A DNA stretch of 64,000 nucleotides from Acetobacterium paludosum (GTDB lineage Bacteria; Bacillota; Clostridia; Eubacteriales; Eubacteriaceae): positions 82,129 to 146,128 of the forward strand of contig NZ_RXYA01000003.1 of the NCBI RefSeq assembly GCF_008086595.1, read 5' to 3'. Within the stretch, counting starts at the first letter, position 1. The number at the start of each line of letters is the position of its first letter. The position numbers and the translations under genes are program-made. The notes under the pieces were generated by a model. It saw only the letters and a program-made list of their open reading frames with translations, made no database searches and had not been told where the DNA came from. Shown piece after piece: positions 313 to 17,938 of the stretch.

Positions 313-2463
313 TCAAAGCAATTGCCGTTTTGCGTATTTATAAAAATAGGACTTGTTTTTCATCAGTTCCTCGTAGGAGCCTTCTTCAACAATATTTCCT
401 TTTTCAAGAACCAAAATCCGGTCACAATCCAGAATCGTGCTGAGGCGGTGAGCAATGACAAGGCGGGTCGCATCCAGATTTTTCATACTTTCCGAAACAA
501 TCTTCTGGGATCGGTTATCCAGAGCGCTGGTAGCTTCATCAAAAAAGATGATGGCTGGAGTGGCCGCAATAGCTCTGGCAATTAAAAGTTTTTGCCGCTG
601 CCCCCCTGACAGGGTACCTGCGCCTTCGGCCACCATGGTTTTAAGACCCATGGGCATTTCCCTGATTTCCTCATCCATCCCCACCTTTTTAAGCAATTCC
701 CAGACATCGTCTTCAGTTAATTCCTTCTTTGAACCAGCAATGTTGGACAGAATATCCCCTGGAATCAGCTGGCTGTCCTGTAGCACGACCCCCATCTGTT
801 TTCTGATTTCCCGGATATCCACACTTTCCAAATCGTAACCCCCACAGTAAATATTGCCGTTTGTTGGTTTTTCAAAACCGAGAAGCAGCCGTAAAAGTGT
901 TGATTTACCACTCCCCGACGCCCCTATAACGGCTACATATTCACCATGCCGGACCGTAATGGAAACATTGTCCAGTATGGTCGGTCCGCCTTCATAATAG
1001 CAAAATCGCAAGTGCGTGATTTCGATATCTCCCAAGATTTTTCCCGGGGTGGTTTTAAACGAATCCACTTCCGGGACACCATCGATAATGGGCTTTGTAT
1101 TCTCATATTGCGGAATCACACTGTTTACGGCAATCAGGGCCTGAACAAGGCCTAATAGAGATGAAATAAAAACAACAAATGCCGAATTGATGGCGACAAA
1201 ATCCCCAGGTGAAATGCTGTTAATACTCACATAATAATAGATGACACACATGCACAAGGTCGGTAGCGCAATGGTTGACAAACGCAGCAGTGCCGTAAGT
1301 TTTCCTCTTTTATACTCAACTTCCCGCTGCGCCGCATAGTCATTGACCCATTTTAAATAGGCCCGACTTTCGGCACCGGCCACCCGCAGTCGGGAAACTG
1401 AGGTAATCAATTCCAAAACCATTCCTGAAATATCGTTAGTCATTTTAATCGACTTTCGCTGACATTTCATCTGCATTTTTCCAATAATCAACGTGAGGAA
1501 AACGCTGAGAGCAGTTAAACCCATTGCGATAAATCCAATCGTCGCATTAATCGAAAAAATATAAAATCCATTAACAATCGAAAATCCCGTTGTAATGATC
1601 ATCGTGATCACATTGACCGATAGTATCTTTTGAATGGTTGCAAATCCGGTTGCCCGAAGTGCCAGAGCTCCTGATGAATACTGCTTGAAAAAAGAAGCCG
1701 GCAGGGACAGCAGTTTATCAAGCAGAGAATTCTGCAGAATTGACAGCTTACCCTGAATTCTCAGAATACACAAACTTTGAACCATTGTAAACAAGCCCCG
1801 ACTGACTGCAACAGCGACCAGTATAAAACCCACGACCAAAATGGTAATGGACTGATTTTGGGGAATCCAGACGTTAAAGGCCTGTTGCATGGCGATTGAA
1901 GGCAGCAGAGATAAAAGCGCAGCCGCCACCGCTAAAACAATCATCCCGATAAAATCTCTTCTTTGAATCAGCTTCGCTCCCAATTTCACCATTTCCCTAA
2001 AGGATACGGGTTCTTTAGGCAGCGGCGGATAAAAAACATAAGCATCTGAAAGCTCCAAACTTCCATCAACCTCTTTCGCCTCACCCTCGTAAGTCTTGCA
2101 TTTATAACGGGTTGGCGAGGACGGTATCAGCGCTACTGCCACTCCTTCTTTGGTGAATGCCAAAATGGGTCCGTTGTCCTTTTTGTACCAGTCATCTTTC
2201 AGTTCCACTAGCCGATAGCGAAAACCAGATTCTTCGGCAATCAATTTGAACTGGTTCTCACCGCTGTACAGCTTTCTGAGCGGCGGAATCTTCACCGCGA
2301 TTCCCATGGCTTCAGCAACTTTAACAACAGCGGAAATCAGGGGATTGTCTTCCAGTGTGACAGATGGCGTTTTTTTCGGGGATAATACTTTGTCAAATGC
2401 TTTTTTGGCACTTTTTTCGTATTTTTCCTTTAACTGTCTCATTTCTTCTAATTTCTTTGCCAT
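313..2463 (-). CDS. Bacteriocin/RiPP export ABC transporter, permease + ATPase; the N-terminal ~160 aa form a peptidase-like domain with no obvious catalytic Cys (NHLP/Nif11-type second exporter subunit)
   Basis: 716 aa; 6 TM region then an NBD with Walker A GASGSGKST, ABC signature LSGGQRQ and Walker B IIFFDEATSALD; no stop-to-start gap with the upstream PCAT gene. Confidence 0.8.
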   Translation of the reverse strand: MAKKLEEMRQLKEKYEKSAKKAFDKVLSPKKTPSVTLEDNPLISAVVKVAEAMGIAVKIPPLRKLYSGENQFKLIAEESGFRYRLVELKDDWYKKDNGPILAFTKEGVAVALIPSSPTRYKCKTYEGEAKEVDGSLELSDAYVFYPPLPKEPVSFREMVKLGAKLIQRRDFIGMIVLAVAAALLSLLPSIAMQQAFNVWIPQNQSITILVVGFILVAVAVSRGLFTMVQSLCILRIQGKLSILQNSLLDKLLSLPASFFKQYSSGALALRATGFATIQKILSVNVITMIITTGFSIVNGFYIFSINATIGFIAMGLTALSVFLTLIIGKMQMKCQRKSIKMTNDISGMVLELITSVSRLRVAGAESRAYLKWVNDYAAQREVEYKRGKLTALLRLSTIALPTLCMCVIYYYVSINSISPGDFVAINSAFVVFISSLLGLVQALIAVNSVIPQYENTKPIIDGVPEVDSFKTTPGKILGDIEITHLRFCYYEGGPTILDNVSITVRHGEYVAVIGASGSGKSTLLRLLLGFEKPTNGNIYCGGYDLESVDIREIRKQMGVVLQDSQLIPGDILSNIAGSKKELTEDDVWELLKKVGMDEEIREMPMGLKTMVAEGAGTLSGGQRQKLLIARAIAATPAIIFFDEATSALDNRSQKIVSESMKNLDATRLVIAHRLSTILDCDRILVLEKGNIVEEGSYEELMKNKSYFYKYAKRQLL

Positions 2464-2466
2464 GGT

Positions 2467-4668
2467 CTATCCCTCGGTTCTAATGAGATTTGCATACTCA
2501 CCGCCCAGTGTCAGCAGTTCGTCATGGGTTCCTCTTTCCGCCACTTCTCCGCCGCTTAAAACAATGATTTCATCACAATCGCGAATCGTTGACAATCGAT
2601 GTGCCACCAGAATGGTGCTGATTCCTCTTTTATTAATATTCTCACTAACCTGGGCTTCCGTTGCTGTATCCAGGGCGCTGGTGGCTTCATCCATAATCAA
2701 TATCCGCGGATTTTTGCACAATGCCCGGGCAATCTCAAGCCGCTGCCGCTGCCCGCCGCTCAAGTTTTTCCCCCCTTCGCTTAAAACATATTCAAAGGCA
2801 TTGGGCAGTGCCAGAATATCTTCATAAATACAGGCATCTTTTGTGGCCTGTATCACATCCGCTACTGGAATGGTTTCATCCCACATGGTGATATTATCCA
2901 AAACCGTCGCCGAATACATCACGATTTCCTGATCTACGGAACTCATGGTGTTATATCTCAGCTCTGCGGGAATATCTTTTATGTTAATGCCATCAATGAG
3001 TATTTCCCCGCTCCACGGTTGATAGAGAGTAGTAATGGTTTTTGCAATCGTTGATTTTCCGCTGCCGGATGACCCCACTAAAGCAATAGAGCCCCCTGCT
3101 TTTAGTTTTAAATTTAGGTCTTTGATGATGGGTTTTGATAAACGGTTATAACCAAAAGTCATATTTATTAGCTCAATCTCCCCATCCAGCTGATCGCAGT
3201 CAAAGCCGTCCAGAGAAATCTTTTCCGTTTCCAGCGCAATATCTTCCGGATATTTTTCAACATCATCTAGCCGTTGAATGTCAGCGATCATCCCCTGTAA
3301 CGCGGCGCTGGTGCTGACCAGTTCACTCATCGGCTGAGTAAATCCTGCCATCAGGGTGTTAAATGCGACAAATGTACCGATGGTCATGGTTCCCATTAAA
3401 ACAAATTCACCCCCAAACATAAATATCAAAGCTGTCAGGATGCTTGTCAGCAGGGTTGGCAGTACCGAGATAATGGCTTCCATCCCCCCCATGCGCTGTT
3501 CCACCGCCAGGGTTTCGGCGCTGAGTCCGGCAATCCGCGTGAAGAAATTGTCTTCCTCGCCAATCGATTTAATCGTTTCAATTGATTTCAGATTCACCAT
3601 GATCCAGCCAATGGATTTTCCCTGATACTGGAGCAGTACCCGGTTGTTGTCCGCATTTTTTTTAGCCGTATACTGGAGCAGCACGATATTAACGGCAGTA
3701 ATGATGATACCGATTAAAGTTAACGGAACATTATATTGAAATAAAAGGATTAAATATAGCCCCGCGGTGACTAGATTAACCAGTATCCGTGCTAAATTGC
3801 TGGATAAAGCTGTTGCAATCGTATTGATGCTCTGCATTCGGCTGTTGATATCACCGGATTGCCGCTGGTTAAAAAACTCCACCGGAAGTCTCAGCACATG
3901 ACGCAGATAGTCTCCGGCACTGTTGATGGCGATATAGTTTTCCATTCGCGCCAAAGCATTTTCTTTTAACCAGTTGAGAATCGCCTGGAGGATCACCGTA
4001 TACAATAAAATACCAAGAAAAATCGAAATATCAAACTGCTCCGAGTTGCTTAAATAATAGTCCACAAATATTTTCGCATAATTTGCAATCACCAACCCCG
4101 GAATAACCAATAAAACCCCAATAATTAAAACATAGATCAATGGCGAAACACCGCTTTGCGAAAGCCTTTTAAACAGTGCTTTCGATACAACCGGTTTTTC
4201 TCCAGCCTTAGTGAATTCTTCGCCCGGACGTGATTCGATGACCACCCCCGTAAACATTTTTTCCAGTTCTTCCTGGGAAACCACCCGCTTTCCTGAGGCC
4301 GGGTCGCATAAATAGACCTTATCGTTTTTAAATCCTTCCAAAACAACAAAGTGGCTGTAGTCCCAGTGAATAATCAATGGCATTTCCATATCCTTTAATT
4401 TATCCACCGTACATACAAATCCCTGGGCCTCTAAGCCATAAAGCCGGGCCGTTCTGGCAATGTTTCCGGCTTTTACACCGTCTCTGGAAACACCACAATC
4501 AATACGCAGCGTTTCCAACGTTTCATATCTACCATAATAGGCTAAAATCATGGAAAGAGATGCCACCCCGCATTCGACAGCCTCCATTTGCAGTACTACC
4601 GGCACTTTCGCTACTTTAGGCAGTTTTTGTTTCTCATCCCGACTTTTCTTGTGTTCTTGATTCGTCAT
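2467..4668 (-). CDS. Peptidase-containing ABC transporter (PCAT; C39 peptidase + permease + ATPase), LagD/SunT/CvaB-like
   Basis: 733 aa; N-terminal C39 motif with catalytic Cys (QMEAVECGVASLSMIL) and the later His/Asp region (HWDYSHFVVL); TM domain; NBD with GSSGSGKST, LSGGQRQR, ILIMDEATSALD. Confidence 0.85.
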   Translation of the reverse strand: MTNQEHKKSRDEKQKLPKVAKVPVVLQMEAVECGVASLSMILAYYGRYETLETLRIDCGVSRDGVKAGNIARTARLYGLEAQGFVCTVDKLKDMEMPLIIHWDYSHFVVLEGFKNDKVYLCDPASGKRVVSQEELEKMFTGVVIESRPGEEFTKAGEKPVVSKALFKRLSQSGVSPLIYVLIIGVLLVIPGLVIANYAKIFVDYYLSNSEQFDISIFLGILLYTVILQAILNWLKENALARMENYIAINSAGDYLRHVLRLPVEFFNQRQSGDINSRMQSINTIATALSSNLARILVNLVTAGLYLILLFQYNVPLTLIGIIITAVNIVLLQYTAKKNADNNRVLLQYQGKSIGWIMVNLKSIETIKSIGEEDNFFTRIAGLSAETLAVEQRMGGMEAIISVLPTLLTSILTALIFMFGGEFVLMGTMTIGTFVAFNTLMAGFTQPMSELVSTSAALQGMIADIQRLDDVEKYPEDIALETEKISLDGFDCDQLDGEIELINMTFGYNRLSKPIIKDLNLKLKAGGSIALVGSSGSGKSTIAKTITTLYQPWSGEILIDGINIKDIPAELRYNTMSSVDQEIVMYSATVLDNITMWDETIPVADVIQATKDACIYEDILALPNAFEYVLSEGGKNLSGGQRQRLEIARALCKNPRILIMDEATSALDTATEAQVSENINKRGISTILVAHRLSTIRDCDEIIVLSGGEVAERGTHDELLTLGGEYANLIRTEG

Positions 4669-4685: not shown

Positions 4686-5510
4686 CTAGGAGATAATCAA
4701 ATTAATCAGATAATATTTATCTGTGAAAATGGTGGTTTGACAGGATGTTCCTATTTTTATTTGTCCATTAAAACCATTGTTGTCTTTTGTCCATATATAA
4801 GTTCCTTTATCATCAACCTTCGGATCGATAATAATTTTCATTTGAAGAGGATTCTGAACATCTTCAGTCACCTTGTTAATTTGAACATTTCGAACAACCC
4901 CTTTTAAATATCCATATTCGGCAGTAGGCGCTGTTTCAAGTGCGATATAAACCGCATCTCCCGACTGAATGGTCTGAGCCGCTTCATAAGTGGAATAGGC
5001 AATAATGACCGATGGGGTGTTTTCACCTTCTGTTTTTTCAATCTGGCAGAAAGCCGCGTTTTTTTGCAGCGTTTCGCCTTCCTGATAGTTAAGTTCTTCA
5101 ACAACGCCACTTTCCGTTGCATAAATCATGGTTTGACGTTTGACTTTGCTTTTTTCTTCGTCCGTCAACCCAATCCCTGTGGAAAATTCAGATCCCAGAC
5201 TCTCCATTGTAACCACACCCAGCAAATCCCCTTTATTGACATAATCGCCTTCGGAAACAGTAATTTCTGTCAAAACGCCTTCATTTTGACCCACTACTTC
5301 AACCGCACCTTCTCCATAGGCTATTGTTGCAGCCATGGTTGTTGTGATTTTTATGGGTACGGTGACTGAAAAAATAACCACGCCGATTAAAAAAATCAGA
5401 ATTCCCAATAAAATGAGCAAATTTTTAGGACCGATAACCGTCATTAATGCCGCCTGCTCATTTTTCTTTGTGCTTTTATCTTCTTTTTTTTGAAAGATGG
5501 ATTTACTCAC
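4686..5510 (-). CDS. HlyD-family secretion (membrane-fusion-like) protein, short form
   Basis: 274 aa; single N-terminal TM helix, then a biotin-lipoyl-like beta hybrid segment (ITVSEGDYVNKGDLLGVV); lies between the PCAT and the rest of the operon and overlaps the upstream gene by 8 nt. Confidence 0.6.
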   Translation of the reverse strand: MSKSIFQKKEDKSTKKNEQAALMTVIGPKNLLILLGILIFLIGVVIFSVTVPIKITTTMAATIAYGEGAVEVVGQNEGVLTEITVSEGDYVNKGDLLGVVTMESLGSEFSTGIGLTDEEKSKVKRQTMIYATESGVVEELNYQEGETLQKNAAFCQIEKTEGENTPSVIIAYSTYEAAQTIQSGDAVYIALETAPTAEYGYLKGVVRNVQINKVTEDVQNPLQMKIIIDPKVDDKGTYIWTKDNNGFNGQIKIGTSCQTTIFTDKYYLINLIIS

Positions 5511-6645
5511 TGCTTTGTCCTCCCACAGTCGGCTTGTTGTTTTTCACCAATTGATTTCCGACATAGGTCTTTTGGAATACCGGAATACTACTGACAAGCC
5601 GTTTATCGAAGCTTACGGTACCATAAAGAGTATCAAAACTGTTATCTGCCAAAACTTTTTTTATCTCTTCCACATCAAGACTTTGGGCCTTATTGGCGAC
5701 ATCTGCCGCTAGATGCAAAGCAAAATAGGCCTGGGCTGCCGGTAAATCAGGGTCTGTCCCAAAAGCACTTTTGTAAGCCTTTATGAAATCAGCCTGAGGA
5801 CCTGCTTGAGCGTTATTGTCGAAATAACTGGTCACCTGAATCAGTTTTTTCATGTTTTGGGGAATCGTAACGGGTTGAATTTCAATATCATAACTGAGAT
5901 AAATCGGTCGGGTATTTCCGGTTTTATCCAAATCATCAAAAAGGGTTGTAATGTCATCCCCAACACAGGCAGACACAATGGCCTGTGCCCCGAGGCTATC
6001 CCATTTTTTTACATAATATCTGAAATAATCAAGATTTGGCAGATAGGAAACGGCATCCACAATTTCAATTCCTGCCGCCGTGGCATATTCTTCGAAACTC
6101 TGCATATAATCTTTTCCATAGGTATTGCCGGGACTATGAACAAACACTACCTTGCTGATCCCCTGGACCACCAAACTCTGAACCATCTCGTTGGCCATGG
6201 AATTTTCTGAAGGAGCACAAAGATAGGCCCCCTCATTTCCCGAAAGATTTATTTTCGAAGTGGCGATTATGGGTGAAAAAAGGATCTTATTATTCCGCTG
6301 ATAAATACTGGCCACTTTCAGCACATCATCAGTGCTTCGATGACCGATCACAATGGGAAAGTCATCATTTCCCGCCACCATTGTGGCCACTTCAACAGCC
6401 GTATTAGTGTTATCTCCGTCATTAACATAATTTACTTCAATATTTCTATTCAGGATACCTCCCTGTTCATTGATTTCAATGGCTGCCAGCTTCAGGCCGT
6501 TGGCAAATGTCGCCCCGTAATCTTCAGAAAATGGATAAATGGCATCCACTGACAGGGTCCCGGTGTCCGACGTTTTACCGGTACAGCCGCAGCAGATCAT
6601 CCCACATATTAGCATAGCTGATAGTATCATTAGATATTTTTTCAT
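5503..6645 (-). CDS. Lipoprotein, periplasmic-binding-protein type I fold (Leu/Ile/Val-binding / ANF-receptor-like substrate-binding protein)
   Basis: 380 aa; signal peptide with lipobox (LICGMICCGC); type I periplasmic binding protein fold along its length; embedded in the RiPP operon. Confidence 0.65.
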   Translation of the reverse strand: MKKYLMILSAMLICGMICCGCTGKTSDTGTLSVDAIYPFSEDYGATFANGLKLAAIEINEQGGILNRNIEVNYVNDGDNTNTAVEVATMVAGNDDFPIVIGHRSTDDVLKVASIYQRNNKILFSPIIATSKINLSGNEGAYLCAPSENSMANEMVQSLVVQGISKVVFVHSPGNTYGKDYMQSFEEYATAAGIEIVDAVSYLPNLDYFRYYVKKWDSLGAQAIVSACVGDDITTLFDDLDKTGNTRPIYLSYDIEIQPVTIPQNMKKLIQVTSYFDNNAQAGPQADFIKAYKSAFGTDPDLPAAQAYFALHLAADVANKAQSLDVEEIKKVLADNSFDTLYGTVSFDKRLVSSIPVFQKTYVGNQLVKNNKPTVGGQSSE

Positions 6646-6654: not shown

Positions 6655-8358
6655 CTAAATAAACTCAGAAAATAGAATCAGATAATGGTCACTCATTTTC
6701 GTCAACAACTTATTCATGTTCTCGGAAGACAGCTTCAGTTTGTCTGACAGCTCTTTTACTGAAAGTCTTCCCGCATACTTTAGCATGTCTAGCTCGATCT
6801 GATTCATAGCCTTTATATCCAGCATTGAAAAAGCGGGGATTTTTTGAATGATCCAGTTGTCTTTTTCTGCTTTACTTAATTCATACCATTCTTTTAAAAG
6901 GCCATCATATTCAATGAGTTTTGAATAGTAACGAAACATCACTATATTTTTAGCATAGATATATTTAAAGTATCCTCCTGCAATGCCATATTTCAGAGCC
7001 AGTTGAAAGTCCTGCTTGATTCGTTCTTTTGGAATAAGCCCTTTTTCAAACTGTTCCTTCATTCTTTGGGAAATTTTTGTAATAAAACGGGAACGACCCA
7101 TGCAGACTTCTGGCAACGAAAGTCCCCATGTATGATTTACCGGAAAATCCTCAAAGGATGTGATATAGTCACGGTCTTCCAGCACAATCTGAAAATCTTC
7201 GGGATGATTATAAATTTTGGTTCCCGGCAGCGGCATGATAAAGGTGGTGGATAAATCCAGGAGTCCCGGTGCCAAACTCAAAAGTTTCAAAACTGCTTTT
7301 GTTGTCTCTCTAAGGGTTTCTTCTGTCTCCAAAGCTCCGCCAATGATATAATTTCCGGTTAACTGGGGCAGTCCTTCTTCATAACAGATTTCCACCACTT
7401 TTTTGATATCCTCCGGTTTTGCTTGTTTGCCATAGGCCTTCAGCACTTCTTCCACTCCCGATTCCATGCCGATCTGCATGCGAACCATGCCTGAGTCGAT
7501 CATCTCCCGGATCAGTCCCGGATGCTTCACCAGAAATCCGGGATGCCCTTCGCAAAACCATACAAAATCATGTTTTTTTCGAAGCTCTCTTAATCCAGCC
7601 AGGAGTAACTTCAACCTATCCGGATCTGTCGTCAGAGTATCATCAGTAAAAAACAGATACCGTGGCCTGTGACTGTTTGACAAGCGTTGTTCGATTTCTT
7701 CTAACACATCCTCGACGGGACGCATTCTCAATTTTTTTGAATTGCCCCCTTCAAAACAGAAAGCGCAGCGGTAGGGACAGCCTCTGGCTGTAATCACCGA
7801 TAGCAGCGGCCTTTCCCGATAATCCAAGACATCCTCATGACAAGGCAATTGGTACGTTGAAAAATCATTTATCTGAACATAATCGGCATTTTCACCCGTT
7901 CTTATTTCTCCCGGAACCGCCGTTTCGCTACCTGTGATTTTTCCGGTTAGCCACTCGATCAGGGTTTCTTCGCCTTCTCCTTTTATGATGGCATCCGCCT
8001 GGTAAACATCCAAATCTGTTGCTGTCATATGGCGGGTATGAGGGCCTCCCAGAACAACATAAAAGTCATAGCGGCTCTTCAGGTATTTAATCATCGACGC
8101 CACCGCCGATTGATTGTCAAAATCACAGTAAAAACAGACTGCAAAGAGATTATCTTTCATTTTTTCAATGGTTTTCACCGTGTCGGTGGTAATCCCGGTA
8201 TAGGCGTTCGCATCAAAACCATGGGCATTCAGTTGGGCCGCCAGGGTTAAAATCCCCAGATTTTCAATCATTTCAAAGGTCCGACCTCTGACCATTCGCT
8301 GGGTATAGATGAGCAAAACTTTGGGTTTTTCTTTTATGGTTGCCGATATAAAATCCAC
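6655..8358 (-). CDS. Cobalamin (B12)-binding radical SAM enzyme (class B rSAM) with a C-terminal RRE-like extension
   Basis: 567 aa; N-terminal B12-binding Rossmann-like domain; rSAM motif GCPYRCAFCFEG (CxxxCxxC); C-terminal ~190-aa extension shared with the paralogs. Confidence 0.85.
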   Translation of the reverse strand: MDFISATIKEKPKVLLIYTQRMVRGRTFEMIENLGILTLAAQLNAHGFDANAYTGITTDTVKTIEKMKDNLFAVCFYCDFDNQSAVASMIKYLKSRYDFYVVLGGPHTRHMTATDLDVYQADAIIKGEGEETLIEWLTGKITGSETAVPGEIRTGENADYVQINDFSTYQLPCHEDVLDYRERPLLSVITARGCPYRCAFCFEGGNSKKLRMRPVEDVLEEIEQRLSNSHRPRYLFFTDDTLTTDPDRLKLLLAGLRELRKKHDFVWFCEGHPGFLVKHPGLIREMIDSGMVRMQIGMESGVEEVLKAYGKQAKPEDIKKVVEICYEEGLPQLTGNYIIGGALETEETLRETTKAVLKLLSLAPGLLDLSTTFIMPLPGTKIYNHPEDFQIVLEDRDYITSFEDFPVNHTWGLSLPEVCMGRSRFITKISQRMKEQFEKGLIPKERIKQDFQLALKYGIAGGYFKYIYAKNIVMFRYYSKLIEYDGLLKEWYELSKAEKDNWIIQKIPAFSMLDIKAMNQIELDMLKYAGRLSVKELSDKLKLSSENMNKLLTKMSDHYLILFSEFI

Positions 8359-10085
8359 TTATTTCCCTCCATTTTATTTAGGGATCGCTCTGCTTCCGCA
8401 TAGAAATTAAGATTCTGCTCCTGAGGATCGAGATTCTTTCTGCCCTGCTGAAGCACTTCTTTTTTTGAAAGCTTTCCGTTGCACAGCTTCAAGAGCGTAT
8501 AGTCTGTTTCATCCAAAGTCTTGTCAAAAATTTTTGGTTTTTCTCCGCTGACATCCGTGTACAGCCATAATTCAAAAGTTCGATGAATAATCGCCTCTTG
8601 TTCAGCTTTTCCCAATTGATCATTTAAAACATACTCATCCGAAGCGCGCATTTTCCAGTAGGCATCATCAATGGGAATATTTTTATAGACATAATCATTC
8701 CAGCGGGTAAAAACCCCGTATTCCCGACCCAATCGGTAGGAATCCAGAATCACTGCTTCCGGAATTTTTCCGTCAAAATAAATTTTGCGCATTTCATTCT
8801 GGAGGCGCTTATTAGCCTGCAACCGAATATTTGTCAGATCAGTAAAATCCAGCTCTGCTGTTCTGGAAAGCGGAATATCTTCGTTGCAGCAATCAATCAG
8901 ATCTTCATAAATTTCCATGCCAAATTTCTCCGGGTTAAGGGTAATCGGCGTTTTGGGATAGGGTAGAAATGAAAAATAAGCGGTTTCGAATTGCCCCGGG
9001 GCATCGTAGAGAAGTTCCATAATCAAGTCTTCAGATTCTTGAATGGTTTCCCGGGTTTCATGGGGACCGCCGATAATAATATTACCGGAAATGCCATGAA
9101 TACCCGATTCAACGCAATGATTAATCACATTCACTGCCATTTTTCGGGTGATTTTTTTGTTGTAACTTTTTAAGACCTGATCACTTCCGGATTCCAGACC
9201 AAAAAAGATCTTCTTTAGACCGGCATCCGCCAGATTCTTCGCCATATCGCGATGCTTGTCGATGGTTGAAATATGAGCGCTGGCAAACCACACAAAGTCA
9301 TAGTCTGCTCTGATTTTTTTTATTTCATCGCAAATCTGATTCACCCGTTTATTATCTAAGGTAAAGGTATCATCCAGAAAATTAATGTAGTTAATAGCCG
9401 GATTACGCTCAAAATTCCCCCGAATTTCCTTCATCAATGAAGGAACCGAGTGACGACGCACCCGCTTGGCATTGGCCCCTTCATAACAGAAGGTACACCC
9501 AAAGGGACAGCCCCGTCCGGTTAAGATGGGCAGCAGTCCGTAATATTTATAGTCGTTGGTCAGGGTGATATCCGGCCAGGGAATATCGTCCAGGTCTTCT
9601 GGCGGCTTTCTAGGCTCGGTTTCCACCAATTTTCCTTCTTCATCCCGAAAAATAATCCCCCGGATGTCTTTCAGCGCTCCTTTTTGCGCGATAAAAAAAT
9701 CCATTAATTCCAGAATGGTTTCTTCACCCTCGCCAATACAAGCGGCTTCGATGGATGCTTCTTTTAAAAATCCGGCATCCATCCCCGCCGTCTGAGGCCC
9801 TCCCGCCAATAAAGAAACTTCTGGAAAAAGCTTCTTCACTTCTTTAGCAAAAATTGTCACCCAGTGAATGTTGTTGAAGTCGCAGTAAAAGCCAATGATT
9901 TTGGGTTTGTCTTCTTTTTCCATCAATTCTTTGACGTAATTCATGGCTTCTTTGGCATAGCCCTGAAACATCTGGACCTCATAGCCTTTATTCGTTAATA
10001 ATTGGGTCAATATATTCATTCCCAGGTTGCTCCCGGGAATATAACCGCTGACATAGCGATGTGATTTGATCAATAATAGTTCCAT
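8334..10085 (-). CDS. Cobalamin (B12)-binding radical SAM enzyme (class B rSAM) with a C-terminal RRE-like extension
   Basis: 583 aa; rSAM motif GCPFGCTFCYEG; B12-binding N-terminal domain; overlaps the downstream gene by 25 nt (translational coupling). Confidence 0.85.
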   Translation of the reverse strand: MELLLIKSHRYVSGYIPGSNLGMNILTQLLTNKGYEVQMFQGYAKEAMNYVKELMEKEDKPKIIGFYCDFNNIHWVTIFAKEVKKLFPEVSLLAGGPQTAGMDAGFLKEASIEAACIGEGEETILELMDFFIAQKGALKDIRGIIFRDEEGKLVETEPRKPPEDLDDIPWPDITLTNDYKYYGLLPILTGRGCPFGCTFCYEGANAKRVRRHSVPSLMKEIRGNFERNPAINYINFLDDTFTLDNKRVNQICDEIKKIRADYDFVWFASAHISTIDKHRDMAKNLADAGLKKIFFGLESGSDQVLKSYNKKITRKMAVNVINHCVESGIHGISGNIIIGGPHETRETIQESEDLIMELLYDAPGQFETAYFSFLPYPKTPITLNPEKFGMEIYEDLIDCCNEDIPLSRTAELDFTDLTNIRLQANKRLQNEMRKIYFDGKIPEAVILDSYRLGREYGVFTRWNDYVYKNIPIDDAYWKMRASDEYVLNDQLGKAEQEAIIHRTFELWLYTDVSGEKPKIFDKTLDETDYTLLKLCNGKLSKKEVLQQGRKNLDPQEQNLNFYAEAERSLNKMEGNKWILYRQP

Positions 10086-10161
10086 CTTCCACCTATCCCC
10101 CTTGAACTGCCGACTGCAACTTTCTCAGTCAGTACTTCGAAGGGGAAAATCCCCTTCTTTT

Positions 10162-10437
10162 TTATGACATTCTTGTTGTTTGGGTTGCTGTAAATGCGTA
10201 ATCTACACCTACAATACTTAAACCGCCGGCAGCCTGATCCAATTGATCATCACTAATTGGTTGTTTTTCTTTTGCTTCTTTAAAAGCAGCCTTAAATTCG
10301 TCTGCTTTTACGGTGTAACCCAATTTTGCAACAATCGCATCAAATTCTGCTTCTGTTTTAGCATCATTAATTTGTTTTGCCAAGGCCTCATCTGTTAATA
10401 CTTTTGCGGCTAATGCTCTTGCACCATCAATACTCAT
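10162..10437 (-). CDS. RiPP precursor peptide with a Nif11-type leader and double-glycine cleavage motif; predicted core LSIVGVDYAFTATQTTRMS
   Basis: The ORF-track protein begins with a TTG-coded Met; the ATG at 10437 has a strong RBS (AAGGAGGAATAATATG). The 92-aa product has the Nif11-domain pattern (amphipathic helices; ...KQPISDDQLDQAAGG) ending in GG before a 19-aa Thr/Val-rich C-terminus. It sits between B12-rSAM genes, upstream of a C39-PCAT. Confidence 0.8.
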   Translation of the reverse strand: MSIDGARALAAKVLTDEALAKQINDAKTEAEFDAIVAKLGYTVKADEFKAAFKEAKEKQPISDDQLDQAAGGLSIVGVDYAFTATQTTRMS

Positions 10438-10465: not shown

Positions 10466-12193
10466 CTAAATCGTAAAATGAGTCAGCCAATATTTAAAAT
10501 TAAATTGATATAAAATATCAACAAATTTTCCATGAAATTCCATCTCATTTTTATAGGCGGTTCCAAACTTTGAATAAAGTTCGGTTTTAATGTCTCCCAG
10601 GCTTCTTTTTCCGGCACAGCGTAAAATCAGCTCATACTCCAAAGGCGAAAGAGCCATGCCATCTAATATGGGAAACCCCTGGGTGAATGTCATCGTGCGC
10701 CATAATTCAAAAGTTCTTTGGGGATAATCTCTGAAGAAATCCAGTGATTCTTCAAAAGCTTGTCCTTCATTTAAATAAAGCACATAGTAGTATTCATAGG
10801 TTCTTGGATTGGCGTAAATTTCCTCAAACCATCGGCTTCTGATTCCATAGGTCAGCGCGGCTTTAAACTGTTTCATCACTACTGCTTCTTCTAGCTCATG
10901 GTTTTTTATTTTTTTTTGCATACTTTGTCTGATGACCTTATTTAATTCCTGTCGGTCTTTCATCACCTGGTCCTGACTTCGCTCTCTCTGGGTCACAAAA
11001 GGGTAGTCATCACCGCAAAGGCAGCCCTCTTCATCATGTAGCTGTAAATTGAATTTTTCAGGATTTTCAAGTATCTGTGTTCCCGGATAGGCTCTTAAAA
11101 ATCCGGTGATGATGTCAATCACACCCGGGGCCTGATTCGTCAGCGTTTCGATAAGTTTTGCAGTGGATCCGACTTTCTCTTCAGGTCCTCCCACAATAAA
11201 GTTGGTGGCAATCTGGGTGAGACCAGTATCTGCAGCATAAGTAACAAATTCAATGATGTCCGAAACCTTTACATGCTTATTATATTGATCAATGACCCTC
11301 TGATCCCCGGACTCAATCCCAATTTGAAGACGGATGAGTCCAGCCTCGATCATGGTTGGGAGGATATCCATCCAATCTTTTATTCGACCCACATGGCATT
11401 CACAATACCAGACAACATCACGTTTTTTTCTGATTTCCTTCATGCCTTCGCAGAATTCTTCAATTCGCTGTCGGTTAATGGTAAAGGTATCATCCATGAT
11501 AATAATATAGTTTAAATCGGGATTGTTTTTTAAATTAAGTCGGATTTCTTCCAGCACCAACGGCATGCTTCTGAGCCGAACTTTCTGTTTTCCGGGACTG
11601 GGAGCACAGTAGGCGCATTGATAGGGACAGCCTCGGCCGGTAAAAATCAACTTGCCGTAGGCATGATTTTTATGGAGGGAACAATGATAGGCCGGTAACG
11701 GCAGACTATCCAGATCTTCAATGATTTCAGGCGGCTCTGTTTCAACAAAAATGTCATCTTTGATCGTGGCCAATCCTTTGATACTGCTTAAATCACCCTG
11801 GAGCTTTAAAATAGCATCTAAAAGTTTAGGCAACGATACTTCAACTTCACCTCTTAAAATATAGTCCACGTTACTTTTTTCCAAAAAATCTTTTTTTAGC
11901 CCAATACTTTGGGGACCTCCAACAATGATGGGAATGTTCCACTTATCTTTTATCTTTTTTGCCAGTTCGGCAATCAATTGAACATTGTCAAAGTCACAGG
12001 AAAAGCCCACTGTATCTGGCTCGTTTTTTTCCATCTCATCCATTAGTTTTTCAGGGTCACCATGAAAAACCAGTGGTTCAAATCCTTCTCTTTCCAGAAC
12101 CCCGGCCAAATAAAACAACCCAACATAATCATGAGCGTTTGTTTCGTATTTTTTTGATACATTACAAAGGAGTATCTTCATTTTCTTACCCAT
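10466..12193 (-). CDS. Cobalamin (B12)-binding radical SAM enzyme (class B rSAM) with a C-terminal RRE-like extension
   Basis: 575 aa; rSAM motif GCPYQCAYCAP; B12-binding N-terminal domain; C-terminal motif LSPLEYELILRCAGKRSLGDI. Confidence 0.85.
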   Translation of the reverse strand: MGKKMKILLCNVSKKYETNAHDYVGLFYLAGVLEREGFEPLVFHGDPEKLMDEMEKNEPDTVGFSCDFDNVQLIAELAKKIKDKWNIPIIVGGPQSIGLKKDFLEKSNVDYILRGEVEVSLPKLLDAILKLQGDLSSIKGLATIKDDIFVETEPPEIIEDLDSLPLPAYHCSLHKNHAYGKLIFTGRGCPYQCAYCAPSPGKQKVRLRSMPLVLEEIRLNLKNNPDLNYIIIMDDTFTINRQRIEEFCEGMKEIRKKRDVVWYCECHVGRIKDWMDILPTMIEAGLIRLQIGIESGDQRVIDQYNKHVKVSDIIEFVTYAADTGLTQIATNFIVGGPEEKVGSTAKLIETLTNQAPGVIDIITGFLRAYPGTQILENPEKFNLQLHDEEGCLCGDDYPFVTQRERSQDQVMKDRQELNKVIRQSMQKKIKNHELEEAVVMKQFKAALTYGIRSRWFEEIYANPRTYEYYYVLYLNEGQAFEESLDFFRDYPQRTFELWRTMTFTQGFPILDGMALSPLEYELILRCAGKRSLGDIKTELYSKFGTAYKNEMEFHGKFVDILYQFNFKYWLTHFTI

Positions 12194-12196: not shown

Positions 12197-15100
12197 CTAA
12201 AACGGAACAACAAGAAGCCAATATTTTTTATCAAAAACTTTCAACGTTTCAATTAGTCGTTCCATAAATTCATCAAAATTTTCTCCAAATGGTTTTCCAA
12301 ATCGGTCATAGAATATTTCAGCAACGGTTTTAATGGTACTTTTGCCGGTACAGTATTTCATCACTTCATATTCAAACGGAGAGAGTGCTTCTCCCCACAA
12401 AACCGGGTAGCCCTCGGAAAAATCAACATCCCGCCACATTTCAATCATCCGTTGCGGCCGCCAATTGGGCAATTCCACCGGGTTCACATCGACAATCCGA
12501 CTGGCGGATTCTCTGGCTAACATGGTATAGTAGGCCGTCAGGGTTGGCTTATGATGCGAAATGATATTAATCCAGTATTTGGGGCCTCTGGCTCCCATGG
12601 CTTTTTTATAGCATCTTAAAATATCCTCATGCTTTAAGTCCCCGTCGTTAAGCATGACTTTTACTTCATCCACAAAACTTTGCAGATATTCCTGATACGC
12701 TCCCATAATTTCCCGGCGATCCATCGTTTCACTGTCCATAATCGGATAATCAGAAATACTGCCTAAACCCTGTTCATCATAGATGGTTAACCCATATTTT
12801 TCAGGATGCAGACCAATATCGGTCATGGGATAGGGCATCACAATACTGGGGGCAATTTCCATCATCCCCGGGCCCAGCCGCAGCAGCTTGGCACCAAAAG
12901 CCTTATTTTTCTCAATGTGTTCACGGTTTTCAAAAGGGCCGCCAACCAGCAGGGCTCCAAAAACCTGTTGAACCCCGGCATCATAGGCTGCTTTAACAAC
13001 CGTTTCGACCATTTCTGGAGATATATTTTTTCGGTATATCTTCAGCATGTCCTTATCCACTGACTCAATGCCGATTTGAAGACGGTTGAGACCAGCATCG
13101 ACCATGACTTCTAACACTTCCGGCCGTCTGCTTAAAGATACTACATCGGCTTCACAATAGAACTGAAAGGGTTTAATCGCTTGAAGGGCCTTTGCCTCCC
13201 GGCAGAAATCATCCAGCCATTTGGGATTGGTGACCAGCGTGTCATCACAAAAGTTAAAATAATTGAGTTCCGGGTATTTAAGCAGAAAATGACGCATTTC
13301 GGCAATGACGTTTGCCACGCTCCGCTGACGCATGGGCCGTTTCAAGGCTCCTTCATGGCAGAAAACGCAGTGGTACGGGCATCCCCGGCTGCTCATCAGA
13401 TAAAGACTGGAGTAATCGATGGGAGTCATGCTTTTATCATAGGCCGGAAATGGCAGATCATCGAGGTTCTCAATAACCGGGCCTTCCCCCCGGTCGATGC
13501 ATTCGTTTTTCTCATTGATATAGAAAATTCCAGGAATGTCATCCAGGTTTTTGTTTTCTTTCAAGGCATCCAGAACCCGGACCATCGCCAGTTCCCCCTC
13601 GCCCCGAACGATGGCGCATGCCTTTGACTGTCTGAGATAATCTTCATTCAGAGAAATAGCTTCAGGGCCGCCGACAAGCACGGGAATGTTAAAGGTTTCG
13701 GTAATGGTCGCACTTACCTTTTTAGCCACATGTTTGTTTTCAAAATCAACCGAAAAACCAATCCCACAGACTTCCTCCCGATTAAATTTTTTCAGAAAAT
13801 CGATGGTCTGATCCGGCCGGCATTCGCATACCGTGGCATCATACCCTTTTGAATCAAGATAGCTTGCCAATCCATAGATCCCCAGGAAAGCTCCATTTCT
13901 GCTGAAGCCGGCAATTTCCATCCCGATGGTTGATAATTTAAAAAGGATGACCTTGTTTTTCACTTTACTTTCCACTGTTTTCTCCTGTTTCACCCATTCT
14001 TTATCTTCGTCTTTGGCTTTTAGAGATCCTGATAACACACACATGCCCACGGATTCCAGTTTTTTGATGGTCTCCAGGAGATAGCATTTAAATTCATGAA
14101 GGTCTCCAAAATTCTGTTCATGTTTTTTAAAGAGTAGTTCTGCCATTTCATTAATGGTTAGCTTGCCTGAGGTATAGGTTAGCACCTCAAATTCAAACGG
14201 CGAATAGACAAATCCGTTTAAAATCGGAATTTCTTCCGCCAGCTCTGGTGTCAGGGAAAGCAGCGCGATCCGCTGGGGATGGGTCTCAAAAACTGTTTCC
14301 GTGTCATAGTCTTTAATGAGCTTATCGCCCCGAATCCGGGCCTTATACTGGGCATCGAAATAGGGATATCGGGAATAAACCAGTCCCTGCCACATCCCAC
14401 TGAGGCTGTATTTTTCACTGAGTGCATAGCTCTCCAGAATCACCTCATCCGGAATCTCACCATCCCTGAGCATTTTTTGCATGAGCTTAATATTCTCTTC
14501 AAAAAACTCATTTCTGGCGGCACAGATTTCCTCGATACTCAGGGTTTCGGTTTCAATCACCGGGAAATCACCCACTGATGTCAGCGCCGCCTCATCTTTC
14601 ACAAAAATCCCAAAAGCCTCAGGATTTTTAGACATGGCGGTTTCCGGGAAAGGCATATAAAAGGTGCTGACCACCTCCACCATCCCCCGACCGGCTCTGA
14701 TCATTTCATTGACTGTGTTGAATGTATAATCCAGGGTTTCCCGGGTCTCCAGAGCTCCTCCGATGATGATATTACCAACCAGCTGGGGCAGCCCCGCTTT
14801 CTTACAGATCTCAACGACTTCGAAAAGACCTTCCCGTTTGATCTTTTTGTTGTAAATATCGATGATATGCTGATTGCAGCTTTCAATACCGATTTGCATC
14901 CGGACCAGGCCGGCCTCGACCATCATTTTCACAATTTCCGGATATTTAATAACAATATTCACATGGGCATCGGCAAACCAGACAAAATCGTGTTCTTTTC
15001 GCAGCTCTTTGAGTTGTTCACAAAAATCTTTGACCCGTTCCTTATCCAGGGTGAAGGTATCATCTCCGAAAAAGATGTATTTCACATTGGGATTCTGGGC

Positions 15101-15787
15101 CAAACGACAGCGGATTTCTTTCATCACATTTTCCACACTGCGGCGCCTGACATTTTTACTGTTCGCACCCTCATAACAAAAAGAGCAGTGGAAAGGACAC
15201 CCTCGTCCTGACATGACTGCCATATGATTAATTCCCTGATGCTGGGAGGATTTAATTTTACCGGTAATAATCGGTAGTTCGTCTAAATTCTCGATAGCCG
15301 GATAAATACCATTGTCATAATAGGTTCCGTCTTTTCTGAATGAACACATTCCTGGAATCTTTTCCCAATTTTCTTCATCTTCGTTTTCAATGTTTCTGAT
15401 GATCTCGTAGAGAGAATACTCCCCTTCTCCTCTGGCAATGCCGTCTGCCCGACTGGTTCTTAAAAAGCCTTCACCTAAGCCAACTGTCTGGGGGCCGCCG
15501 ATAAAAACATAGGCGCCATATCGCTTTTTAATCTCCTGTGAAAAGCTTTCAATTGCCGACTGATTCTCATAATCGCAATACAAAGCCACTACTGTATTTA
15601 CATCACAACCATCAGTTTTGAGAAATTCCAGGCCTTTTAACAGTTCTCCAGAAAATACGGCAACTTCAATACCTTTGCTGGCCATCATTTCAGCTAATGA
15701 CATATGGCCAATGGGCTCAATTTGAGTGATTGAATGGGTTCGCGTTCCTCTATGAATAAGCATCAGCTTCAGATTAATCGTTTTCAA
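12197..15787 (-). CDS. Fused tandem double cobalamin-binding radical SAM enzyme (two complete B12-rSAM modules in one 1196-aa polypeptide)
   Basis: Two separate CxxxCxxC motifs (GCPFHCSFCYEG in the N-terminal half, GCPYHCVFCHEG in the C-terminal half), each preceded by a B12-binding-like domain and followed by an RRE-like segment (LSPFEFEVLTYTSGK... and LSPFEYEVMKYCTGK...). Confidence 0.85.
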   Translation of the reverse strand: MKTINLKLMLIHRGTRTHSITQIEPIGHMSLAEMMASKGIEVAVFSGELLKGLEFLKTDGCDVNTVVALYCDYENQSAIESFSQEIKKRYGAYVFIGGPQTVGLGEGFLRTSRADGIARGEGEYSLYEIIRNIENEDEENWEKIPGMCSFRKDGTYYDNGIYPAIENLDELPIITGKIKSSQHQGINHMAVMSGRGCPFHCSFCYEGANSKNVRRRSVENVMKEIRCRLAQNPNVKYIFFGDDTFTLDKERVKDFCEQLKELRKEHDFVWFADAHVNIVIKYPEIVKMMVEAGLVRMQIGIESCNQHIIDIYNKKIKREGLFEVVEICKKAGLPQLVGNIIIGGALETRETLDYTFNTVNEMIRAGRGMVEVVSTFYMPFPETAMSKNPEAFGIFVKDEAALTSVGDFPVIETETLSIEEICAARNEFFEENIKLMQKMLRDGEIPDEVILESYALSEKYSLSGMWQGLVYSRYPYFDAQYKARIRGDKLIKDYDTETVFETHPQRIALLSLTPELAEEIPILNGFVYSPFEFEVLTYTSGKLTINEMAELLFKKHEQNFGDLHEFKCYLLETIKKLESVGMCVLSGSLKAKDEDKEWVKQEKTVESKVKNKVILFKLSTIGMEIAGFSRNGAFLGIYGLASYLDSKGYDATVCECRPDQTIDFLKKFNREEVCGIGFSVDFENKHVAKKVSATITETFNIPVLVGGPEAISLNEDYLRQSKACAIVRGEGELAMVRVLDALKENKNLDDIPGIFYINEKNECIDRGEGPVIENLDDLPFPAYDKSMTPIDYSSLYLMSSRGCPYHCVFCHEGALKRPMRQRSVANVIAEMRHFLLKYPELNYFNFCDDTLVTNPKWLDDFCREAKALQAIKPFQFYCEADVVSLSRRPEVLEVMVDAGLNRLQIGIESVDKDMLKIYRKNISPEMVETVVKAAYDAGVQQVFGALLVGGPFENREHIEKNKAFGAKLLRLGPGMMEIAPSIVMPYPMTDIGLHPEKYGLTIYDEQGLGSISDYPIMDSETMDRREIMGAYQEYLQSFVDEVKVMLNDGDLKHEDILRCYKKAMGARGPKYWINIISHHKPTLTAYYTMLARESASRIVDVNPVELPNWRPQRMIEMWRDVDFSEGYPVLWGEALSPFEYEVMKYCTGKSTIKTVAEIFYDRFGKPFGENFDEFMERLIETLKVFDKKYWLLVVPF

Positions 15788-15934
15788 TATTTGCCTCCCA
15801 ATTGTATTTTTTGTTTTCAGTACTCCCTATATCGATATAATTTTTTTAAATTTTCATTTTAATATTTTTTTCATTTTATTCTATTTTGTTCACTTTGTCT
15901 ATCGTTTATTTGTTAACTTTTCATGCCTATCTTA

Positions 15935-16024: not shown

Positions 16025-17263
16025 TTATTTTTTCGGTTCGACCTCAAGCTTCAGCACTCTGGCAAAGTATTTTGCCGTGCTCGCCTGAAATGTTAGCGTG
16101 ATAATAATCGCAATTGAAGTGACTGCGGATATCAGCTGGGCATTTGGAATATTCATCGTGATCAGCATGCCTGCCAATGCGGCGGGAATCACGCCCGTTT
16201 CTCTTGTCCAGCATAAATAAGCGATTTCCCTGATATTCCACTTTGCTTTTCGGTCCAGAGGTACCGTGAGCAGAACCGAGATCGGTCGTGCCAGAAAGAC
16301 AAAAGCCAGAATCACCAGCAGTGCCTGTACCCAGTACTGCGAAATGATCACGAAATTCATTTGAATTCCCAGCAGCATGAAGATCAGCATCCTGATTAAG
16401 GATATCGTCACATCCTTGAATTTTTCATGCTTCTCATGACCTTCTTCATGCACCTTTAGGTTGAACATGCGTTTGTTTCCGCAGATCATACCAACGGTGA
16501 ATGCTGCCATAAAGCCGCTGACTCCAATCGACTCTGACAGGACATAAGCCGCCAAAACAGCAGCTATCGCCATCTCAGCCGTAAATCCCCGAAACCGTCC
16601 GAATTTGCCTTCGCAGACAAGCAGGTTTCCAACATAACCGATGATTGCCCCAACCAGGACTCCTCCGCCGGCCGTCTTCAGCAGATCCAGAAGACTGCCT
16701 CCAATTGAAAAACCGCCTCCGGCCGCTATTCCAACAATCGCAAAGGTAATGATGGCTCCCGCGGCATCATTGAATGCCGATTCCGAGATAATGGTCTGCT
16801 TCAATTTAGGGCTGATGTTCATGTTTTTAAACAAAGGCACCAGCACGGAAGGATCTGTTGACGCAATGACCGCACCCAGCAGCAAGGCATAGATAAAATC
16901 GATGTTGAGTATCTTCCAGGCAAAGAAGCCGGTAACAACCGCAGAAATAAGCACGCCGACAGTCGCCAATAACCCGATGGTTACCTTTACTTCATTTAAT
17001 ACCTTGAGCTCAATTTCTCTGCCGCCGTCAAACAGTATGTAAGCCGCACCAAACGATAAAATCAGCTGATTGATTACCGCATATTCACTAAAATCAATGA
17101 TGTTCAAAACCGTTGGTCCTACAATGATACCCGCCGCAATGTACAGCACGACATCTGGTATGTGTATCCGCTTGCTCACTTGCGTTAAAACAATACCAAG
17201 AAAAGTAATGATTGCCAAAATCCGCATCAGATTGTCTGCCAGTTCTACAACATTTCCCGCCAC
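16025..17263 (-). CDS. Cation:proton antiporter (Na+/H+ exchanger, CPA1-type)
   Basis: 412 aa; ~11 predicted TM helices; Gly-rich membrane motifs typical of Na_H_Exchanger family proteins. Confidence 0.7.
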   Translation of the reverse strand: MAGNVVELADNLMRILAIITFLGIVLTQVSKRIHIPDVVLYIAAGIIVGPTVLNIIDFSEYAVINQLILSFGAAYILFDGGREIELKVLNEVKVTIGLLATVGVLISAVVTGFFAWKILNIDFIYALLLGAVIASTDPSVLVPLFKNMNISPKLKQTIISESAFNDAAGAIITFAIVGIAAGGGFSIGGSLLDLLKTAGGGVLVGAIIGYVGNLLVCEGKFGRFRGFTAEMAIAAVLAAYVLSESIGVSGFMAAFTVGMICGNKRMFNLKVHEEGHEKHEKFKDVTISLIRMLIFMLLGIQMNFVIISQYWVQALLVILAFVFLARPISVLLTVPLDRKAKWNIREIAYLCWTRETGVIPAALAGMLITMNIPNAQLISAVTSIAIIITLTFQASTAKYFARVLKLEVEPKK

Positions 17264-17404: not shown

Positions 17405-17938
17405 CTAAAAAAGGATCATGCCAAACCAGGTAACGACGTTATAACCATTGAAAAATGACAGGTTATGCTTTTCACATATGTCTGTCACACTGATTGTCTG
17501 GCTTTCAATACAGGGATACATTTTATCTAAATGCCGACAGGCTTGATCCGGGTATGCACATTTTTCACATAGAGCACACGATTCTGCCGTAAGAATAAGG
17601 ATATCGTCATTTTCACTAAAAACATTTTTCTTTATTTGGTTTACAATCTGAATATGTTCTCCTCTGGTTGAAAGCATTTCATCCATATTGAGAATGTCAC
17701 TGACTTCAGATATGGTGCTGAAAATAAAGGCGTGATCGTAACTTGTACACCGGCCTTTACATTCATCCAGGGTTCCAACCGCCGGAGGGCAGGACCACGA
17801 TTTGCCATATTGCGGACATTCATTTTTACAGATAGTTCTCACCGCCTGATGAAAATTGAGTTCAGCGGGATCAAAAAATGCATACTCAACTATCGGATAT
17901 TCCGTAATTTTCTTTTCAATTTCTTCTTTTGTAATCAT
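17405..17938 (-). CDS. Predicted metal-binding protein (DUF2284-like, Cys-rich)
   Basis: 177 aa; Cys clusters CKNECPQYGKSWSCPP, CKGRC and CALCEKC. Confidence 0.45.
   Translation of the reverse strand: MITKEEIEKKITEYPIVEYAFFDPAELNFHQAVRTICKNECPQYGKSWSCPPAVGTLDECKGRCTSYDHAFIFSTISEVSDILNMDEMLSTRGEHIQIVNQIKKNVFSENDDILILTAESCALCEKCAYPDQACRHLDKMYPCIESQTISVTDICEKHNLSFFNGYNVVTWFGMILF

Follow-up and report, generated by a model that had tools for sequence, protein, structure and literature searches.

A tandem radical-SAM gene heads a nine-gene peptide operon

The DNA examined was a 64,000-nucleotide stretch of the Acetobacterium paludosum genome (assembly GCF_008086595.1, contig NZ_RXYA01000003.1, positions 82,129 to 146,128), referred to here as the window. 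It contains an operon of nine closely packed genes, all on the minus strand, the first of which encodes two class B (B12-type) radical S-adenosylmethionine (rSAM) modules in a single open reading frame (ORF). These modules were designated H1 and H2. Three further genes encode stand-alone modules of the same type (R2, R3, and R4), and another encodes the precursor of a ribosomally synthesized and posttranslationally modified peptide (RiPP). Our reading, to which we assign a probability of about 70%, is that the first gene is a natural fusion joining two class B modules that diverged long ago, that the fusion has a single origin, and that it functions in the RiPP pathway proposed below.

The initial annotation described a 1196-residue polypeptide with two complete units, each comprising a B12-binding domain, an rSAM domain, and a domain resembling a RiPP recognition element (RRE). 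This description holds: the ORF is continuous and all of these domains are found in each half (Table 1). The two CxxxCxxC motifs that had been placed near residues 195 and 800 begin at residues 197 and 803, and in each half the CX3CX2C motif lies within a PF04055 (Radical_SAM) barrel that follows an N-terminal Rossmann domain of the PF02310 (B12-binding) type, as expected for class B enzymes. The start codon is TTG, with a ribosome-binding site (GGGAGG) six bases 5' of it. A promoter-like site is located 5' of the fusion gene in an AT-rich region, 3' of the terminator hairpin of a Na+/H+ exchanger gene.

Pfam searches detected PF04055 in both halves, with scores of 81 and 82 bits when the halves were scanned separately (cut-off, 29.5 bits). 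The expectation that PF02310 would likewise be found twice was only partly borne out. In H2 it scored 36.7 to 49 bits, above the 32.1-bit cut-off, but in H1 it scored 14.9 to 18.2 bits, under the 32.1-bit gathering score. Because a missing B12-binding domain had been named beforehand as a result that would overturn the two-module description, the H1 match was examined further. The N-terminal domains of 14 of 16 H1 orthologues matched PF02310 (best E value, 1e-11), and a profile of H1 N-terminal domains aligned to the Rossmann domains with which CysS and TokK bind cobalamin. In an AlphaFold2 model, the N-terminal domains of both halves had an identical five-strand beta-alpha pattern. The possibility of a degenerate B12 domain in H1 was rejected on these grounds. 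Profiles and model together indicate that the H1 domain is real and simply divergent in the Acetobacterium subclade.

The AlphaFold2 model, for which 31 fused orthologues were aligned as input, had a mean predicted local distance difference test score (pLDDT) of 89.9 and a predicted template-modeling score (pTM) of 0.85. The pLDDT fell below 50, a sign of disorder, only at residues 602 to 607, inside the linker. A pTM of 0.85 in a two-module chain suggests confident relative placement of the modules, the inter-module arrangement being judged from the pTM alone. The top Foldseek matches in the PDB were exclusively cobalamin-rSAM structures: MgmA (9ccb), TsrM (6wte), CysS (9n1b), TokK (7kdx), OxsB (5ul3), and AprD4 (6fd2). 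Each superposes with either half of the model, with target-normalized template-modeling scores of up to 0.74 and identities of 13 to 18%; all are single-module structures that, unlike the fusion, do not have its C-terminal RRE-type domain arrangement. Sequence searches of the PDB gave distant matches only. The C-terminal winged helix can be superposed on solved leader-binding RREs of the PqqD-like fold, and the H1 C-terminal domain aligns with those of H2 and the single modules and has the same secondary-structure pattern in the model. The RRE-like domains are candidates for leader binding. H1 and H2 are also predicted to bind and use cobalamin. The fold by itself does not prove such use, because AprD4, one of the structural neighbors, is known not to use cobalamin.

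Table 1. Features of the fusion gene and its operon (window coordinates)
Feature	Position	Strand	Remarks
Promoter-like site TAGACA-17-TAAAAT	15873..15901	-	Putative, consensus match only; 10/12 in consensus scan
Fusion gene, H1-linker-H2	12197..15787	-	Single 1196-aa ORF; heads operon
H1 cobalamin-binding Rossmann-like domain	15338..15787	-	aa ~1-150; beta-alpha pattern E5-12...E116-118 in model
H1 radical-SAM barrel	14588..15235	-	aa ~185-400; Pfam Radical_SAM 193-356, 81 bits
H1 [4Fe-4S] motif C197-x3-C201-x2-C204	15176..15199	-	CPFHCSFC; invariant in 31 orthologues
H1 C-terminal winged-helix (RRE-like) domain	14027..14305	-	aa ~495-587; aligns with H2 and single-module C-terminal domains
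Inter-module linker	13955..14026	-	aa ~588-611, ~25 aa; hydrophilic; length and sequence hypervariable
H2 cobalamin-binding domain	13508..13954	-	aa ~612-760; Pfam B12-binding aa 635-738, 49 bits
H2 radical-SAM barrel	12773..13420	-	aa ~790-1005; Pfam Radical_SAM, 82 bits
H2 [4Fe-4S] motif C803-x3-C807-x2-C810	13358..13381	-	CPYHCVFC; invariant in 31 orthologues
H2 C-terminal RRE-type winged helix	12200..12496	-	aa 1098-1196
R2, single B12-rSAM module	10466..12193	-	575 aa; 3 nt 3' of fusion gene
Precursor	10162..10437	-	91 aa; TIGR03798, 43.6 bits (cut-off 32.3), and Pfam Nif11
Hairpin GAAGGGGA-loop-TCCCCTTC	10139..10157		Perfect 8-bp stem, GC-rich; directly 3' of precursor stop
R3, single B12-rSAM module	8334..10085	-	583 aa
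R4, single B12-rSAM module	6655..8358	-	567 aa; 25-nt overlap with R3
Peripla_BP_6 periplasmic-binding-protein family gene	5503..6645	-	Between R4 and HlyD gene
HlyD-type membrane-fusion adaptor	4686..5510	-	Short, 274 aa
C39-peptidase/ABC exporter (NHLM_micro_ABC1)	2467..4668	-	TIGR03796, 903 bits (cut-off 853.3); Pfam Peptidase_C39
Partner ABC exporter subunit (NHLM_micro_ABC2)	313..2463	-	TIGR03797, 749.7 bits (cut-off 709.4)

Origin of the fusion

A check proposed in the initial annotation was whether the halves are recent duplicates of one another. They are not. H1 and H2 share 32.6% identity, all pairs among the five modules share 24.8 to 34.5%, and neither half is nearer to the other than it is to R2, R3, or R4. 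In a neighbor-joining tree H1, H2, R2, R3, and R4 form five deep orthologous clades with matching internal branching, and the sister of H2 is R2 rather than H1. Recent duplication was rejected on the basis of these identities and the tree.

In two lineages H1 and H2 are encoded by separate neighboring genes, with the gene order H1-H2-R2-precursor. One is a Wallbacteria metagenome-assembled genome (locus L026), in which a short run of N lies exactly between H1 and H2, making its unfused state uncertain when taken alone. The other, a metagenomic contig (locus L031), settled the point. There, H1 terminates (...KHWIVFVPS*) as a stand-alone module, followed by a 164-nucleotide spacer with its own ribosome-binding site and then by H2. 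The linker of the fusion corresponds to this spacer. With bootstraps from a distance method, the H1 portions of the fused proteins formed a monophyletic group in 100 of 100 replicates, as did the H2 portions, with the unfused L026 and L031 orthologues as sister group. Monophyly of the fused forms, together with an unfused sister group that has the same gene order, argues for one ancient fusion of adjacent genes, and the simplest reading of the sequences is that the spacer became the linker once a stop codon had been lost.

The core peptide is the same in the unfused systems (LSIVGVDYAFTAAETASH in L031 and LSLVGVDYAFVGVQTSKK in L026). Thus, the fusion is not obligatory for the chemistry and is dispensable for the pathway, and the suggestion in the initial annotation that the two halves cooperate obligately is not supported.

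Precursor peptide and accessory genes

Across the related loci the precursor is always accompanied by all five modules, although in the Synergistaceae and Anoxynatronum the gene order is rearranged to precursor-R3-R4-H1H2-R2. The precursor has a Nif11-type leader (residues 1 to 72) that ends in AAGG and is followed by the core LSIVGVDYAFTATQTTRMS. Cores are about 17 to 19 residues long, contain many Val, Ile, Thr, Phe, and Tyr residues, and have the near-invariant consensus LSxVGVD(Y/F)AF(T/V)x(T/V). The pattern x-[ST]-[ILM]-[VI]-G-[VIF]-D-[YF]-x-[FY]-[TV]-x-[TV] fits all related loci, and the core hardly varies even between loci whose enzymes share just 39% identity, as on a bovine metagenome contig.

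Some loci of the A. wieringae type have two or three precursors (L007:5991-6245; L009:15347-15601 and 16265-16525; L012:15852-16112), including a variant core, (T/I)(S/T)(M/L)(I/V)G(F/I)DYPFVMTPIVP. In the divergent core (TSMIGFDYPFVMTPIVP / ITLVGIDYPFVMTPIVP), only the G-x-D-Y-x-F skeleton is kept. Next to the extra precursor is a duplicated remnant of the 3' end of R2.

The hairpin that follows the precursor has no T-run on the sense strand; it possibly serves in mRNA stabilization or attenuation and could set the ratio of precursor to enzyme transcripts. R3 and R4 overlap by 25 nucleotides (8334-8358) here and by about 22 nucleotides in all related loci, which hints at a second, translationally coupled pair of modules analogous to the H1-H2 fusion.

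The precursor with its Gly-Gly site and the TIGR03796 and TIGR03797 matches of the two ATP-binding cassette (ABC) exporter proteins place the cluster among Nif11-leader RiPPs with NHLM-type export. The adaptor matched NHLM_micro_HlyD (TIGR03794) at 56.5 bits, below the cut-off of 156.2 bits. The cluster does not qualify as a proteusin cluster: the leader is of the Nif11 rather than the NHLP type, and the only rSAM modules encoded in the operon are the five B12-type ones. The Peripla_BP_6 gene, of the branched-chain amino-acid/urea type, was found only in Acetobacterium-type clusters; in two of the related loci (L028 and L029) other genes take its place.

Beyond the operon, the window encodes a DUF2284 metal-binding protein (17405-17938) and a regulator with HTH_17 and PBP_like domains (18110-19081). 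Within the side region 18110-22824, NifH on the plus strand (19685-20509) is followed by two ORFs of about 105 to 122 residues and one of 521 residues; a nitrogenase cluster seems to begin here. The G+C content is 0.30 at 26001-28000 and about 0.40 elsewhere in the window.

Probable chemistry of the five modules

None of the five modules reached the cut-off of any curated NCBIfam family. All gave partial matches with similar scores to HpnJ, ApyD, BchE, PhpK, and rSAM_ocin_1, and methylases (PhpK, HpnR, rSAM_ocin_1, and ApyD) scored no better than nonmethylases (BchE, HpnJ, and AprD4). For example, the PoyB/C-like family TIGR03975 (cut-off, 281.85 bits) scored 55.3 bits with H1, 77.4 with H2, 76.0 with R2, 94.7 with R3, and 39.3 with R4, and ApyD (NF050148; cut-off, 750 bits) gave 50 to 120 bits per module over partial alignments only. 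Thus, with no family above its cut-off and with methylases and nonmethylases scoring alike, the chemistry cannot be assigned by homology.

By analogy, the most likely reaction is C-methylation of unactivated carbons at several sites, because most RiPP-associated B12-rSAM enzymes methylate and because Val, Ile, Thr, Phe, and Tyr are plentiful in the core. RiPP-associated C-methyltransferases of this type include PoyB/C (polytheonamide), BotRMT1-3 (bottromycin), MpcB (clavusporin), and ApyD, and multisite C-methylation of hydrophobic cores has precedent in the clavusporins, polytheonamides, and bottromycins (PMC10849626).

It is possible that some or all of the modules are not methyltransferases and instead form C-C or C-heteroatom cross-links or carry out radical rearrangements, for example linking the aromatic residues of Y8-x-F10. 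Class B rSAM enzymes are known to form C-C cross-links, thioethers, and rings and to contract rings (PMC12257519, PMC13331322), and ThnL, BchE, and OxsB exemplify nonmethylating class B chemistry (PMC13331322). PbsB, a B12-rSAM RiPP maturase, joins aromatic side chains two residues apart (i/i+2) in biphenomycin-like peptides (PMC12257519). The core studied here retains a comparable aromatic-x-aromatic motif, the invariant [YF]-x-[FY], as well as G5 and D7, and the modules are equidistant from methylase and nonmethylase families. However, PbsB, which forms a C-C cross-link, needs ortho-tyrosines made beforehand by a multinuclear nonheme iron-dependent oxidative enzyme (MNIO), and the operon has neither an MNIO gene nor any other oxidase gene. 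Most characterized RiPP B12-rSAM enzymes are C-methyltransferases, and the beta-branched and aliphatic residues that abound in the core are typical methylation targets. We therefore regard nonmethylating chemistry as unlikely, though it deserves serious consideration, and retain C-methylation as the expected modification.

Comparison with known methylating systems gives only partial parallels. The PoyB/PoyC proteusin C-methyltransferases (TIGR03975) are likewise class B rSAM enzymes, with several paralogues per cluster, that act on a leader-bearing ribosomal peptide; their pathways have NHLP/Nif11-type precursors and the same NHLM C39-ABC export, and the products are heavily C-methylated hydrophobic peptides. 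In contrast, the modules studied here score 39 to 95 bits against the 281.85-bit cut-off, the leader is Nif11 rather than NHLP, genes for a PoyD-type epimerase or further proteusin tailoring are absent, two of the five modules are fused, and the core is short. The best functional analogy for the predicted type of product is the Streptomyces clavusporin system MpcB/MpcC (a B12-rSAM enzyme with a DUF5825 protein), which introduces multiple beta-C-methylations into a short hydrophobic core rich in Val, Ile, Thr, and Pro (PMC10849626). There, one promiscuous CX7CX2C enzyme with a separate DUF5825 partner makes up to 8 methylations (PMC10849626), whereas the A. paludosum operon lacks a DUF5825 gene and encodes five distinct CX3CX2C modules, every one fused to an RRE-like domain of its own. 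In bottromycin biosynthesis, the paralogous class B rSAM methylases BotRMT1-3 each methylate one residue (Phe, Val, or Pro, at beta-carbons) of one short peptide. This is the same logic of one module for one site, but the bottromycin enzymes are encoded by separate genes without fusion, work with a follower peptide rather than a Nif11 leader, and occur in actinomycetes.

Integrity and recurrence of the fusion

Across the 31 orthologues, neither half shows any variation in its cysteine triad or in the GGP, GEGE, IGIES, and IIGG motifs. The rSAM core of H1 is the most conserved part of the entire protein (column identity, 0.7 to 0.83), and the C-terminal region of H1 is less conserved than that of H2. 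The junction (query residues 572 to 612) is the least conserved stretch; it varies from 33 to 87 residues among orthologues and is in frame throughout. Both halves look catalytically intact and are under comparable constraint.

One alternative is that one half is a noncatalytic scaffold or pseudoenzyme, with H1, for example, merely presenting the leader or peptide to H2. The sub-threshold B12-binding score of H1 in A. paludosum and the weaker conservation of its C-terminal region are what such a role might produce. However, the invariant H1 motifs and the strong conservation of its rSAM core argue for catalysis, as do the B12-binding matches in 14 of 16 H1 orthologues and the occurrence of stand-alone H1 orthologues as full enzymes. 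A noncatalytic half is thus improbable.

About 53 protein clusters of 1180 to 1290 residues share the full-length architecture, with 100% coverage and identities down to 37%. Carriers include Acetobacterium tundrae (95% identity), A. bakii, A. wieringae, "Ca. Formimonas warabiya," Sporomusa malonica, Anoxynatronum sibiricum, Thermoclostridium, Synergistaceae, and many metagenomes. In all 24 complete genomic loci, which include complete genomes of several genera, H1-H2 is an uninterrupted single ORF. That a sequencing or assembly frameshift or a lost stop codon artificially joined two adjacent genes, an error that the initial annotation had proposed to check for and that the unfused gene pairs of some lineages might bring to mind, has next to no chance of being correct: it is already refuted by the continuous ORF in 24 independent loci and in some 53 clusters from many samples, by the monophyly of the fused forms, and by a linker whose length varies yet stays in frame.

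The view that tandem class B fusions are uncommon was confirmed by an exhaustive HMMER scan of 1.84 billion representative proteins, in which 41,401 matched at an E value of <=1e-3 and three 50%-identity clusters had the fusion. Literature searches, which covered a 2025 structural review among other accessible papers, gave no description of tandem or multimodule class B rSAM fusions. The solved or characterized class B enzymes that were found are all single modules.

The same scan returned unrelated multimodule proteins of 1029 to 2331 residues (P0119, P0122, P0136, P0180, P0186, P0188, P0204, and P0206) from candidate phyla (Calescamantes and Omnitrophota) and metagenomes, in several independent samples. 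P0119 and P0122 (about 2300 residues) have five Radical_SAM domains, one SPASM-type and four B12-type; P0180 (1497 residues, Calescamantes) has three modules, P0206 (1029 residues) has two, and P0204, from Omnitrophota, is 1820 residues long. The gene for P0119 (L032:8001-14840) is in a glycosyltransferase/carbamoyltransferase/SPASM-rSAM cluster that has no Nif11 precursor and is not a RiPP cluster. Because class B fusions with three to five rSAM domains exist elsewhere, the di-module is not the extreme case. Module fusion in class B rSAM enzymes is rare but recurrent.

Other relatives have what may be called 1.5 modules. In these proteins (L026:7211-9880, 889 residues; P0055-P0061, 870 to 912 residues), a complete H1-like B12-rSAM module is extended by about 300 residues that weakly resemble a second copy of the post-barrel/RRE region (tblastn, residues 324-567 of H1 and 481-592 of H2).

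Proposed pathway and role of the fusion

In the pathway that we propose, the 91-residue precursor would be bound through its Nif11-type leader by the C-terminal RRE-type winged helices of H1, H2, R2, R3, and R4. Each module, using its [4Fe-4S]/SAM site and cobalamin, would install its own site-specific modification in the hydrophobic core, most likely side-chain C-methylation at unactivated carbons. The C39-peptidase ABC exporter is predicted from its sequence to cleave after Gly-Gly and would export the product in concert with ABC2 and the HlyD adaptor. By tethering H1 to H2, the flexible linker (about 25 residues) would provide 1:1 stoichiometry and proximity. H1-H2 would probably be a compact pseudo-heterodimer, making two modifications per leader-binding event.

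Several lines of evidence were considered for the role of the fusion itself. Rosetta-stone logic, the conserved adjacency of the two genes in unfused relatives, and the high pTM together speak for H1 and H2 acting next to each other on a common substrate. A flexible linker and viable unfused systems speak for a benefit in stoichiometry, proximity, or ordering and against a shared active site. Cooperation between H1 and H2, presumably kinetic, is therefore likely, and sequential or processive action is plausible. A similar Rosetta-stone situation is found in FbiC, the F0 synthase, a CofG-CofH fusion whose two radical-SAM domains act successively in one pathway and are encoded by separate genes in other lineages. 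However, the FbiC domains are not cobalamin dependent, their substrate is a small molecule, and there is no RRE.

Several observations weigh against the proposed reading: the sub-threshold match of the H1 N-terminal domain to PF02310, the failure of every module to reach a curated family cut-off, the range of nonmethylating reactions within class B, and the unfused orthologues, which serve the same core and so do not need the fusion for the chemistry.

A more far-reaching proposal, which we hold as tentative and rather doubtful, is that the cluster defines an undescribed RiPP family of strict anaerobes (core LSxVGVD(Y/F)AF) matured by an ordered assembly of five modules, in which an H1-H2 pseudo-heterodimer would process the leader-bound peptide without releasing it.

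Significance

RiPP maturases of the class B rSAM type are a known kind of enzyme, and the surrounding RiPP family of anaerobes is widely distributed and apparently uncharacterized. No paper on this cluster or its core was found in full-text searches of literature available without subscription. The system is well defined and experimentally attractive, although a specialist is unlikely to be astonished by it. Class B rSAM enzymes carry out some of the hardest C-H functionalizations in biology and are difficult to study. The fusion offers a conserved natural di-module with a confidently predicted inter-module arrangement, and the sister lineages with separate genes and the same core provide a natural control for whether tethering serves channeling, ordering, or stoichiometry alone. 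Five nonredundant modules acting on a near-invariant core of about 15 residues hold the promise of a densely modified new peptide scaffold.

The rSAM giants with three to five modules indicate that modules have fused repeatedly, which has apparently not been described before. If the ordered five-module assembly proves true, it would document for the first time that cobalamin-rSAM enzymes cooperate between modules and could explain the giants of the candidate phyla. The presence of the cluster in acetogens, Synergistaceae, and rumen and groundwater anaerobes suggests an ecological role in anoxic communities.

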